NCBI RefSeq assembly: GCF_035084215.1
Contig: NC_090368.1
Location: 3,410,001-3,474,000, forward strand
From: Heptranchias perlo
Taxonomy: Eukaryota
Length of the DNA stretch: 64,000 bases
Direction: 5' to 3'
Made by a program: the position numbers and the translations under genes. Shown here piece by piece: positions 5,758 through 17,600 of the stretch. Every line of letters starts with the position of its first letter. Position 1 is the stretch's first letter. The notes under the pieces are model-generated. The model had not been told where the DNA came from and searched no databases. It saw only the letters and a list, made by a program, of their open reading frames with translations.

Positions 5758-5802
5758 TCAGAGCGTCGGATCTGCATTAAGCGCCAGGCGGGCATAAAGA
5801 GT
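5758..5802 (-). CDS. Gene A exon 6, TLYARL tyrosine motif + stop
   Basis: catag|ACT CTT TAT GCC CGC CTG...TGA; motif also present in gene B. Confidence 0.82.
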   Translation of the reverse strand, partial: TLYARLALNADPTL

Positions 5803-8800
5803 CTATGAGAGACAAGAGAGACCGTCATCATGACCCGCTTCATCATCATAACAATATAGGAACAGGAAGAGGCCATTCAGCCCCTCGAGCCCGTTCCACC
5901 ATTCAATTAGATCATGGCTGATATGCACCTTAACTCCATTTTCCCGCCTTGGTTCCCTAACCCTTAATACCCTTACCGAATAAAAAATCTATCAATCTCA
6001 GTTTTGACATTTTCAATTGATTCCCAGTCTTAACAGCTTTTTGGGGGAGAGAGTTCCAGATTCCCACTCCCCTTTGTGTGAGGAAGTGCTTCCTGACATC
6101 ACCCCTGAACGGCCCGGCTCTAATTTTAAGGTTCTGCCCCCTTGTTCTGGACTCTCTCCCACCAGAGGAAATAGTTTCTCTCCATCGACCCTATCGAATC
6201 CTTTAATCATCATAAACGCCTCAATCAGATCACCCCTTAACCTTATAAACTTGAGGGAATACAAGCCGAGTCTATGCGACCTGTCCTCATAATTTAACCC
6301 TTTTCACCCCGGTATCATTCCGATGAAGTATCATGCTGTAATATCTTTAAAAATCCATATAATTATTTTAAATATCCTTAAAATATCCATATAATTATTT
6401 AAAATATCCTTCAAATAGCCAAATATTTATTTAAAATATCTTTTAAAAATCCATATAATTATTTAAAATATCCTTAAAATATCCATATAATTATTTAAAA
6501 TATCTTTTAAAATCCATATAATTATTTAAAATATCCTTAAAATAGCCAAATGATTATTTAAAATATCTTTAAAAATCCATATAATTATTTAAAATATCCT
6601 TAAAATATATCAATATAATTATTTAAAAGATCCTTAACATATCCATATAATTAATTAAAATATCCTTGAAATATCCATATCATTATTTGAAATATCCTTA
6701 AAATAGCCAAATAATTATTTAAAATATCTTTAAAAATCCATATAATTATTTAAAATATCCTTAAAATATCCATATAGCTATGTAAAATATCCATACAATA
6801 TCCATATAATTATTTAAAATATCCTTAACATATTCATATAATTATTTAAAATATCCATATAACTCTTTAAAAATCCCTGAAATATCTATATAATTATTTA
6901 AAATATCCATATAATTATTTGAAATATCCATCTAATTATTTAAAATATCCTTGAAATGTCCATATGTATTTTTAAAAATCTACTTTCGTACCTCTACACA
7001 AAAGACAGACAGTGCCATCCTGCAGTGCCAAGTTTTATGGACTGTAACACAACAATAACTATGAATCTTAACCGATAGATTAAAAATCAGCGAAGTGTAT
7101 CTAAATGTGCAAAATAAAAACAATTCTTTTCATATTTACCTCCTTTTCTTGATGGCGTGGTCTCGAATCCGTGAACTCCTGGTCACTGATTGTGCTCCCT
7201 AATTTAAAGAGAATCTTAAGCTAAGTATCAAGGTGCAAATTTCACACAGAACGGACCCATTAAGAGTAAATAACACGGTAAATGGATTTGACTGGGACTG
7301 CAGATGCTCCCGACAATCGGTACCTGACTGCCTGATCCTGCAGCTCTTTCCCGCGGTGATTATAACCATCGCCAGGAGGAGAAGCGCCGCCGACGAACTC
7401 CCGTAAAGCTGTAATCTGCAGACGGTTAGTGGGAGAGACTCTGCAGGAAAGAAAAAAAATATCCCGTAACCCAAACCTTCCGGTGCTCGCAGACGGTTCA
7501 CTGGGACCCACCGCCACCGTCTAGAGATGGGCAGTCAATACCAACCGTGCCCACATCCCGAGAACAAATTAAAAAAACGTTTCTGAAAATAATGAAACAA
7601 GTGAAGCGGTTTTGCAAAGCTGACTGTGTGATTTCACACAACACCGGGAAGTGCTCTGCTTATTTAGCCAGCCATAAATCAAGCTATGTTAACCCACTGT
7701 TTAACCATGACTTAGGCAGAGATTTTACGATAGATAGATCGATAGATAGAGAGATAGATAGATAGATAGATAGACCACACAAAACTGGGGTGGAATGTGA
7801 GCTGTGAGGAGGATGCAAAGAGGCTCCAATGTGATTTAGACAAGTTGGGTGAGTGGGCAAGAACATGGCAGATGCAGTGTAACGTGGATAAATGTGAGTT
7901 TATCCACGCTGGTTGTAAAAACAGAAAGGCAGATTATTATCTGAATGGTGATAGATTGGGAAAAGGGGAGGTGCAACGAGACCTGGATGTTCTTGTACAC
8001 CAGTCGCTGAAAGCGAGCATTCAGGTGCAACAAGCAGTTAGGAAGGCGAATGGTATTTTGGCCTTCATTGCAAGAGGATTTGAGTACAGGAGCAGGGATG
8101 TCTTACTGCAGTTATACAGGGCCTTGGTGAGACCACATCTGGAGACCACATGTGCAGTTTTGGTCTCCTTATCTGAGGAAGGATGTCCTTGCCATGGAGG
8201 GAGTGCAATGAAGATTTACCAGACTGATTCCTGAGATGACAGGACTGACGTATGAGGAGAGATTGGGTCGACTAGGCCTGTATTCACTAGAGTTTAGAAG
8301 AATGAGAGGTGATCTCTTCGAAACATATAAAATTCTAACAGGACTAGACAGACTAGATGCAGAGAGGATGTTCCCGATGGCTGGGGAGTCCAGAACCAGG
8401 GGTCACAGTCTCAGGATACGGGGTATGCCATTTAGAACCGAGATGAGGAGAAATTTCTTCACTCGGAGGGTGGTGAACCTGTGGAATTCTCTACCACAGA
8501 AGGCAATGGAGGCCAAGTCATTAGATGTATTCGAGAAGCAGATAGATATATTTCTTAATGCTAAAGGGATCAAGGGATATGGGGAAAAAGCGGGAACAGG
8601 GTACTGAGTTAGACGATCGGCCATGATCATTTTGAATGGTGGAGCAGGCCCGAAGGGCCAAATGGACTACTCTTGCTCCTATTTTCTATGTTTTCTATGT
8701 CTATGATAGATAGATAGAGAGATAGATAGATAGAGAGATAGAGAGGTAGATAGATAGAGAGGTAGAGAGGTAGATAGATAGATAGATAAATGGATTAGNN

Positions 8801-14586: not shown

Positions 14587-14622
14587 TTAATCCGCACTGT
14601 ACGCCAGGCGAGCGTACAGAGT
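14587..14622 (-). CDS. Gene B exon 6, TLYARL motif + stop
   Basis: ctcacag|ACT CTG TAC GCT CGC CTG GCG TAC AGT GCG GAT TAA. Confidence 0.82.
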   Translation of the reverse strand, partial: TLYARLAYSAD

Positions 14623-17600
14623 CTGTGAGGGAAGAATATGAGAATAATTACTGCCATCTTCACCCCCTCTCTTCACTGTTATCTCTTACTGTGAGAAGTT
14701 AGAAGTTTGACTCAAAATGATAAGCTATCGGTGATCTCCCGCCTGAGTGTCCTTAGATTAATTTAAGAACAGGAAAAAGGACTTTAAAAAAGAAAAGTTA
14801 ACGTATATTATTTACATAGCAATGCAAGAATAAACTCAGAAAAATCTTCTCTCCTTATCTCTGTAACCCCCTCCAACCCTCCGAGATCTGTGCGCTCCTC
14901 CAATTCTGGCCTCTTGCGCATCCCCTACGCCCTTAGCCCCACCATTGGCGGCCGTGCCTTCAGCTGCCTGGGCCCTGAGCTCTGGAATTCCCTCCCTAAA
15001 CCTCTCCACCTCTCTCTCCTTCTTTAAGACGCTCCTTAAAACCTACCTCTTTGACCAAGCTTTTGGTCGCCTGTCCTTAAGGGGTGATCTGATCGAAGTT
15101 TATAAGATATTAAGGGGAACGGATAGGGTGGATAGAGAGAAACTATTTCCGCTGGTTGGGGATTCTAGGAGTAGGGGGCACAGTCTAAAAATTAGAGCCA
15201 GACCTTTCAGGAGTGAGATTAGAAAACATTTCTATACACAAAGGGTGGTAGAAGTTTGGAACTCTCTTCCGCAAACGGGAATTGACACTAGCTCAATTGC
15301 TAAATTTAAATCTGAGATAGATAGTTTTTTTGCCAACCAAAGGATATGGGCCAAAGGCAGGTATATGGAGTTAGATCACAGATCAGCCATGATCTTACCA
15401 AATGGCGGAGCAGGCTCGAGGGGCTGAATGGCCTACTCCTGCTCCTCTGTTCCTAATATCTCCTTATGCGGCTTGGTGTCAAATTTTTGTCTGAAACGCT
15501 CCTGTGAAGCGCCTTGAGACGGTTTACTACCTTAAAGGCGCTATATAAATGCAAGTTATCGTTGTAAGCAATTCATTACATGTGAACCGCTCTGGGTCAT
15601 ATCTGAGGGAGAATTATGTGTTGTGTAAGTGAGAATCTTTCTTTAAACTTACTACCAACCGACATATCCATTAATATCAAGGAAACATGTGATACAAGTA
15701 TAGAACCATACAGCACCGAAGGAGGCCATTCGGCCCGTCGTGCCTGTGCCTGCCCGTTGAAAGAGCGATCCAATTAGTCCCACTCTCCACGCTCTTTAAT
15801 GAAAACAAAAGCTCTCAATTTCTTCATACGTACCTCGCTTTCTTGTTTCTTTATTCTTGGTTTTGTGCCTTGGTCAGGTGTGTCTGGACTGCCTGATTTA
15901 AGGAGATGATTATAATTATAAATGTACAGACCTACACACCAAAGGGACATGTTCAACAAACGGTAAATCACTCCATCGACGGTTAAGTTCAAACAGTCGG
16001 GTACCTGGTTTGCGGTTCTTATCGCGTCTTCTCGCGGCGACAATGATCATCCCGAGCAGAAAAGGGGCCGCCACCAGACAGGCGTAAAGCCCGATGGGGC
16101 AGGCCATGCTCTGGAGAGACTCTGAATGACAAAGAAATAACTTTTATTAAATGAACAAAAAAAAAAAGAAGTTGACTTTCAGTAAAATTCTGAAATCTAT
16201 TGGCATTTTCTGATATTTCTGCGGTAATCAATGTGCACACAATGGTGTACTGTCCGCTATATAAATCTGGCCTCTTGTGCATCCCTCACCCCTTTCGCCC
16301 CACCATTGGCGGCCGTGCCTTCAGCTGCCAGAAAGGAATGAGGGTGTTAGGCGATCTTTTGTAAGCATTCGGTTGAATAAATATTTGGGGGGGAAAAAAC
16401 GTATGTAGAAAGGGCAGCTAATGGGATTAAGGCAGAGTTCTTTCAGAGAGAGGGCACAGGGGCGATGGGCCGAATGGGGAAAGGATAGGGGAATGGGACT
16501 GAGAATATTCCTTTCAGAGAGAGGGCACAGAGGCGATGGGCCGAATGGGGAAAGGATAGGGGAATGGGACTGAGAATATTCCTTTCAGAGAGAGGGCACA
16601 GAGGCGATGGGCCGAATGGGGAAAGGATAGGGGAATGGGACTGAGAGAATATTCCTTTCAGAGAGAGGGCACAGAGGCGATGGGCCGAATGGGGAAAGGA
16701 TAGGGGAATGGGACTGAGAATATTCCTTTCAGAGAGAGGGCACAGAGGCGATGGGCCGAATGGGGAAAGGATAGGGGAATGGGACTGAGAATATTCCTTT
16801 CAGTGCGAGGATAGAGGGGCGATGGGCCGAATGGGGAAAGGGCAGGGGAATGGGATTAAGGCGTTATTTTTTTCAGAGCGAGGACACAGGGGCGATGGGC
16901 CGAATGGCTCCCTTCTGTACAGGAAAATTCTGTATCTAGATCGGGGGAGGTCATGGGACAGGTAACTAATGAAGCAGTTTAAGGTATAAAGTAACAGATA
17001 CAGCAATTTAACACTATCGTTAACTATATTAAACTTCCAATATCTCCACTCACCTCTCTGATATGAAACACTTTCACTGGTGAGGATTCCAGCGGTGTTA
17101 GTTTGAACACTGCAAGTACAGACAGCGCCGCCGCTCCAAGTTTCCGCCGAGAGGCTAATGTAACTCCTGACACTGTAGCTCCCGTCCGGGTCTATTATCC
17201 CGGAATCGGTCCGCCCCTCGGTCACCCGTCCGGAAACATTCCAGCGGATGGGAGAGGAATCGGGAGATACGCCTCTCGCCAGGCACATCAACGCGACCCT
17301 TTCCAGCGAGCGAATTTCATCCGGCGGCGGAGTTAGGAGAAATATGGCCGGGGGATCTAATAAATTCGATAAATGAGCCGGAACAATTCAAAACGGATGT
17401 GTAAATGAACATTTGAATGAAATAATTGTGAATTTTACCTGCAATCACCAACATGGTGCCATTTCCGAAGATAAAGTTGGTATTTTCCTGGTTGTGAATT
17501 GCACAGTGATAAATTCCTGAATCGTTTCTCTGGACGTTTTCAATAACCAGAGAATAATTACTCGACGCATCACTTATCTCGCCGGAAAACCTTCCCTCTG

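Follow-up and report, generated by a model that had tools for sequence, protein, structure and literature searches.

Two spliced, non-rearranging VJ-C1 receptor genes of the shark Heptranchias perlo with an uncharged transmembrane segment and a conserved tail tyrosine

Introduction

How would a receptor signal if it were built like a T-cell receptor (TCR) chain outside the cell and like an inhibitory receptor inside it? Two genes, A and B, raise this question. They lie in a 64,000-nucleotide stretch of the Heptranchias perlo genome (contig NC_090368.1, positions 3,410,001 to 3,474,000), which we call the window. The original prediction, made from the DNA letters alone, held that their antigen-receptor ectodomains are wired to a tail resembling an ITIM or ITSM (immunoreceptor tyrosine-based inhibitory or switch motif) instead of to CD3, and that the products signal on their own through SHP-1/SHP-2 or SAP/EAT-2-type SH2 proteins, being candidates for NK-like inhibitory receptors.

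Genes A and B are spliced, non-rearranging membrane-receptor genes, each with a joined variable-joining (VJ) domain, a C1 domain, an uncharged transmembrane (TM) segment and one conserved tail tyrosine. Exon structure, splicing, the lack of TM charge, and the conserved tyrosine motif and stalk cysteine are all observed. Our preferred reading, to which we give a probability of roughly 0.6, is that the two proteins inhibit independently of CD3, their tail tyrosine, once phosphorylated, drawing in phosphatases of the SHP-1/SHP-2 type. They probably belong to PRARP, a family that has been described but little studied.

Results

Contigs from four runs, all of one sample in one study, were mapped to window positions 5400-19700 at 99% likeness; an earlier mapping of the same contigs at 92% was swamped by repeats. 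None of the runs is on record as RNA, a status that we guessed, and it is the spliced joints that count. The genes stand in tandem on the minus strand, A at 19511-14587 and B at 10684-5758, with six exons each:

19469..19511, minus strand: gene A leader exon (split leader, phase 1), found by scan; joint 17777/19469 in 3/4 runs among the joints listed
17439..17777, minus strand: gene A one-exon VJ domain, V-set, with FGNGT J-like end; Pfam V-set E 9.5e-18
17054..17356, minus strand: gene A C1 exon, skippable, 297/303 nucleotides the same as gene B C1; Pfam C1-set E 8.8e-10
16005..16121, minus strand: gene A exon for stalk Cys and uncharged TM segment; gene model and splice joints
15834..15892, minus strand: gene A cytoplasmic linker exon, last codon Glu; splice joints
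14587..14622, minus strand: gene A terminal coding exon, starting TLYARLA and including the stop; joint 14622/15834 in 3/4 runs among the joints listed
10642..10684, minus strand: gene B leader exon; joint 10153/10642 in 3/4 runs among the joints listed
9815..10153, minus strand: gene B one-exon VJ domain with FGNGS J-like end; Pfam V-set E 1.1e-15
9425..9727, minus strand: gene B C1 exon; Pfam C1-set E 7.1e-10 and splice joints
7324..7440, minus strand: gene B exon for stalk Cys and uncharged TM segment; gene model and splice joints
7140..7198, minus strand: gene B cytoplasmic linker exon, last codon Glu; joints in 4/4 runs
5758..5802, minus strand: gene B terminal coding exon, starting TLYARLA and including the stop; joint 5802/7140 in 4/4 runs

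The six-exon models have GT-AG at every intron and are open over 298 residues in gene A and 301 in gene B, and all 10 introns of the pair are joined in the contigs, again with intron-type GT-AG ends. Each VJ exon is 339 nucleotides long and holds V and J in a single germline exon; each gene has one C1 exon and encodes a cytoplasmic tail of about 40 residues. The two TM strings and two TLYARLA strings quoted in the original prediction lie where it had placed them on the minus strand. Its dependence on use of the terminal exon in mRNA is borne out by the joints listed, which splice this exon into gene B in all four runs and into gene A in three. A leader for gene A near 18240 was rejected, its sequence not being hydrophobic, and 19511-19469 was taken instead.

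Gene A also makes a shorter message. In all four runs its V exon is joined straight to the TM exon (16121/17439), which skips C1 in frame and leaves an open form of 197 residues made of V domain, stalk, TM segment and tail. An unnamed relative, P0083, likewise consists of V, TM and tail without C1.

Searched against the genome, the C1 exon matched closely at three places, each on the contig that carries the window (C47): genes A and B and, at 54%, a third gene, C. A further 100 matches reach 38% at most.

C47:3406869-3399936, minus strand, just outside the window: gene C, modelled with leader, VJ, C1, uncharged TM segment and tail

The tail of gene C ends in a canonical ITIM, VLYASL, and the gene belongs to an older V/C lineage that is also found in zebra shark and Mobula. 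The C1 exons of A (17054-17356) and B (9425-9727) are identical at 297 of 303 nucleotides (98%), while their V exons are 64% alike and the flanking introns are unrelated. The V domains fall in different, old lineages, that of B including ray sequences (98/97), and a V tree holding A and B together was rejected (p-AU 0.0002). Near-identical C1 exons amid unrelated introns are most simply read as the likely product of gene conversion confined to the exon.

Do these chains carry the charge that couples a TCR to CD3? The best 19- and 21-residue hydrophobic windows of A and B contain no Lys or Arg, as had been predicted. In gene B an Arg directly after the stalk Cys falls within the best 23-residue window, at a position that varies among relatives. 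We scanned 49 relative sequences, isoforms included, 42 of them with a TM segment; the inner TM window is free of Lys and Arg in 39 of the 42 and holds one in the other three. Two TCR-type TM exons from the same genome served as controls and do carry basic residues, the TCR-beta-like exon a central Lys, the TCR-alpha/delta-like exon both Arg and Lys; we assign these chain names from familiar motifs, and beta also from the C1 tree. In an alignment of 59 rows, 90% or more keep the stalk Cys.

A and B share with TCR chains the split leader, the VJ and C1 domains, the stalk Cys and the TM segment. TCR chains differ in having split V and J segments flanked by recombination signal sequences (RSSs), a basic TM residue and a very short tail, none of which is found in A or B, whose tyrosine-motif tail of about 40 residues is spread over two extra exons. 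The RSS pattern has one match in 224 kb, at an immunoglobulin (Ig) light-chain V segment, and none at A or B. With joined VJ, uncharged TM and long tails, the two are not CD3-coupled TCR chains, in agreement with the original prediction. The horn shark protein model P0015, a paralogue, carries an Arg within the N-terminal half of its TM segment and ends in a short, Tyr-less tail; it is possibly an activating counterpart or a gene-model artefact, and we found no gene like it in the Heptranchias perlo genome.

The two genes share the peptide around the tail tyrosine. The last intron of each is in phase 0 after a Glu codon, and the resulting E|TLYARLA straddles the exon junction. A and B are identical at 52 of 112 residues in V, 13 of 38 in the TM exon and only 6 of 19 in the linker (a 59-nucleotide exon), against 7 of 7 in the motif, so the predicted picture of a shared junction peptide in a diverged tail holds. 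Four of the seven motif codons are identical, three differ synonymously and none changes the residue, an indication that the peptide is under selection and not that it was recently copied. In the 127,996 six-frame residues of the window TLYARL occurs twice, while the looser ITIM and ITSM patterns occur 270 and 25 times; since such patterns are frequent, the weight of the motif rests on its position and conservation.

Within the last 45 residues, xxYAxL is kept in 37 of 45 elasmobranch relatives, which come from 18 named shark and ray species with several paralogues per species and hence are not independent. Twenty-five of the 37 read TxYxxL, nine DxYxxL, two are strict ITIMs and none is a strict ITSM. 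Position +5 is hydrophobic in 37/37 (Phe in 21/37; Tyr in gene A, Leu in gene B), position -1 is L in 20, I in 11 and V in 3, and E stands at -3 in 26/37. Of the eight relatives lacking the motif, five are models without a TM segment and three have a TM segment with a short tail. A and B have a single motif per chain; a second Tyr in gene A (Y295), three residues from the end, is itself the +5 residue.

What might bind such a tail? The excerpts of PMC12151841 give the ITIM as (S/I/V/L)xYxx(I/V/L) and the ITSM as TxYxx(V/I), as the original prediction had them, and TLYARL (TxYxxL) fits neither strict consensus, having T at -2 and L at +3. In the same excerpts the C-terminal SH2 domain of SHP-2 prefers T/V/I at -2, A at +1 and I/V/L at +3, and is helped by F at +5. 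The TLYARLxF pattern fits these preferences well. A SLAM-type switch, in which SAP or EAT-2 binds TLYxxL and activates in some cells while SHP acts in others, would make use of the T at -2 and of the hydrophobic -1 residue, on which SAP binding to the CD150 motif depends (PMC12151841, excerpt). That residue is present in A and B, as in most relatives. We think a switch role unlikely nonetheless, for +3 is Leu and not Val or Ile, no strict ITSM occurs among the 37, and tetrapod relatives with a strict ITSM mostly have Glu at -1. On sequence grounds SHP seems the better bet than SAP/EAT-2 as partner of a TxYxxL tail.

The same YxxL could also activate. In a hemITAM, the pattern of CLEC-2 and Dectin-1, a dimer would offer two YxxL motifs to Syk or ZAP-70 without an adaptor, and one YxxL per chain, acidic residues upstream (E at -3 in 26/37, D at -2 in 9/37) and a conserved stalk Cys are what such a receptor might show. 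There is no conserved tri-acidic run, however, the T/A/L/F at -2/+1/+3/+5 suits SHP preferences, and the motif takes an ITIM or ITSM form in paralogue C and in distant relatives, all of which makes activation improbable.

It is also conceivable that YxxL is an AP-2-type sorting signal and that the proteins serve for adhesion or capture or as decoys, without SH2 signalling. The lone motif near the C-terminus and the disorder predicted for the tail of a horn-shark relative would suit that role, and for the related UrIg and UrIg2 the main sites of expression are liver and gill rather than lymphocytes (PMC12227049, excerpt). Distant relatives, however, retain ITIM/ITSM-type residues at -2. Conservation also reaches -3, -2, +1, +4 and +5, a breadth that sorting signals are not known to need, and we regard this role as quite unlikely.

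To place the genes we searched 1.84 billion representatives by profile and then searched again with the tetrapod matches. Single V-C1 relatives were found in sturgeon, gar, bichir, coelacanth, lungfish, amphibians (caecilian, newt), turtles, alligators, lizards and birds; none of the relatives from sturgeon to birds carries a family name. Among 30 hand-picked distant relatives ten have a strict ITSM and six a strict ITIM (one match inside the TM segment was dropped). In 46 bird, crocodilian and other rows (P0216-P0261), only three turtle rows have a C1-set match. The AlphaFold model of a horn-shark relative, neither A nor B, shows V and C1 domains, a single TM helix and a tail of low confidence.

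Are A and B then simply TCR or light-chain genes joined in the germline, or orthologues of SIRP, with no separate old family behind them? The closest structural matches of the horn-shark model are Ig light chains, a SIRP cluster ranks fourth in the ESM Atlas listing, a rearranging light-chain cluster lies nearby, and the TCR-alpha/delta-like C exon of the same genome is sister to the family's C1 group (95/89; 94/85 in a second C1 tree). Set against this, one branch separates 36 family rows from 26 Ig/TCR rows in the C1 tree (94/88, not starred) and 34 from 7 in the V tree (94/89, not starred). These trees are of about 110 columns and of rows hand-picked from the matches, with the family label taken from the same searches. 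Adding the three domains of one SIRP-like protein lowers the family's support to 86/42 and places SIRP elsewhere; that protein reaches 56-70 bits, where 11 of 12 family relatives score 106-216 and the twelfth 82. No SIRP is among the top 60 PDB matches of V or C1, and A and B have a single C1. We consider such an origin very unlikely. The relatives from sturgeon to birds have this build and a tail tyrosine in common and, with moderate support, stand apart from Ig, TCR and the one SIRP-like protein.

Discussion

The build of A and B appears to have been described before. Fu et al. 2019 are said to have defined PRARP by a joined VJ without rearrangement, a V-C1 ectodomain in non-avian species and a tail with a potential ITIM or ITSM. 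PRARP reportedly forms disulfide-linked dimers, is expressed in B and T cells, has orthologues in bony fish, amphibians, reptiles and birds, and is reported to lie in the major histocompatibility complex (MHC) or a CD1-syntenic MHC-paralogous region. By that account the combination that the original prediction offered as new is the defining description of PRARP: joined VJ without rearrangement, V-C1-TM, an ITIM/ITSM-like tail and relatives from bony fish to birds are all found here. Build, tail and species range agree with what Fu et al. 2019 reportedly describe, and it is quite probable that A and B are shark members of the PRARP family, a likeness drawn from the family's reported description rather than from chicken sequences. 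The shark genes differ in numbering three in this genome, in TxYxxL where tetrapod relatives have TEYxxV, and in an intact C1 with a skipping form. The receptor concept thus appears to have been published already for birds and other bony vertebrates, which limits the surprise.

PRARP is also mentioned in PMC11599192 (excerpt) and placed among 'VJ genes in the MHC' in the excerpts of PMC10751288, whereas the contig of the shark genes holds none of the 43 genome matches to MHC class I exons. One supplement of PMC10751288 does not mention PRARP, VJC1, paqr6, smg5 or two whale-shark LOC numbers. No description of the shark A, B and C genes was found in the literature searched, whose coverage leaves out most subscription journals.

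Other non-rearranging receptors invite comparison. SIRPs have a V-C1-C1 ectodomain and several tail motifs, and the second domain of the teleost NITRs is I-type. A and B share with SIRP-alpha and the NITRs a joined VJ-type domain, the absence of rearrangement and a Tyr-based tail, putatively inhibitory in A and B; they differ in their single C1 from SIRP, of which one SIRP-like protein groups apart, and in a C1-set second domain (Pfam) from the NITRs, which are joined VJ-type receptors (PMC7916673, excerpt). According to the excerpts of PMC12227049, UrIg and UrIg2 are likewise elasmobranch, non-rearranging VJ-C1 genes with a split leader, and the UrIg2 C exons have been homogenised by gene conversion. 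UrIg has three C1 domains and nurse shark UrIg2 nine, against one in A and B; they are sited in the MHC and the Ig heavy-chain/TCR-alpha-delta complex, and UrIg is secreted (PMC12227049, excerpt).

Downstream of the mRNA we infer the following course for A and B. The stalk Cys would join two chains into a dimer that reaches the surface without CD3, where ligand would cluster the V domains. A Src-family kinase could then phosphorylate TLYARL, the dimer's two motifs would dock onto a phosphatase with tandem SH2 domains, and this phosphatase would damp a neighbouring activating receptor. The inhibitory reading is supported because gene C carries a canonical ITIM and distant relatives carry strict ITSMs and ITIMs.

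Several observations weigh against it. TLYARL falls outside both strict forms, of which the ITIM is seen in 2/37 relatives and the ITSM in 0/37; there is one motif per chain, whereas paired motifs are stressed for PD-1 (PMC12151841, excerpt); and the Asp at -2 in 9/37 relatives is off SHP preferences. Three of the 45 relatives pair a TM segment with a short motif-less tail, and in one of these the TM segment holds an Arg. The 58 relatives matched include neither a chicken entry nor any named PRARP. Expression rests on one sample of unrecorded tissue with a guessed RNA status, and in run X1 no joint into the gene A terminal exon is among those listed; an unspliced contig from that run covers the last acceptor of gene A (14595-14916), yet the TM-linker joint is present. 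Of the original interpretation, then, the distinction from CD3-type TCR, the use of the terminal exon and the conservation of the tyrosine (37/45 shark and ray relatives) stand, and the motif is a TxYxxL hybrid outside both of the strict consensuses it cites.

Like a TCR chain, A and B are two-domain proteins in the membrane, and they are spliced into full messages; with C, they are candidate inhibitory receptors of shark lymphocytes. With only three genes here and full messages, the signalling question is directly testable. [quoted passage not shown] It is tempting, if doubtful, to speculate further that the family is the surviving non-rearranging sister of TCR alpha/delta beside a rearranging light-chain cluster, that the gene-converted C1 permits mixed A/B dimers, and that exon skipping toggles between TCR-shaped V-C1 and PD-1-shaped V-only forms.

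Genomic neighbourhood

Exons named by match to the PAQR/HlyIII family, presumably PAQR6-like, lie at 26442-28911 on the plus strand, adjoining gene A in divergent orientation. An APH1 gene is about 590 kb away, and the gene model of a lizard relative is named APH-1A. Set beside the gene positions of the human 1q21-22 block, this linkage is a hint of shared synteny. Contig C47 has no SMG5-family match, and a genome search for nicastrin returned no match; neither search supports the synteny.

The split V-J light-chain cluster lies 26-39 kb beyond gene B, at C47:3376574-3381110 (plus strand) and 3389524-3389184 (minus strand), with a V carrying a 12-bp RSS, a J carrying a 23-bp RSS, and a C exon. 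We take it to be sigma-2-like. At 10 kb from gene C, an inverted duplication of 1.1 kb contains an identical second C exon in inverted orientation.

Within the window, minisatellite arrays occupy 29371-29662 (perfect 20-bp repeats), 41989-43066, 43527-44246, 16440-16907 and 18691-19403, and fragments resembling long and short interspersed nuclear elements (LINEs and SINEs) are numerous throughout.

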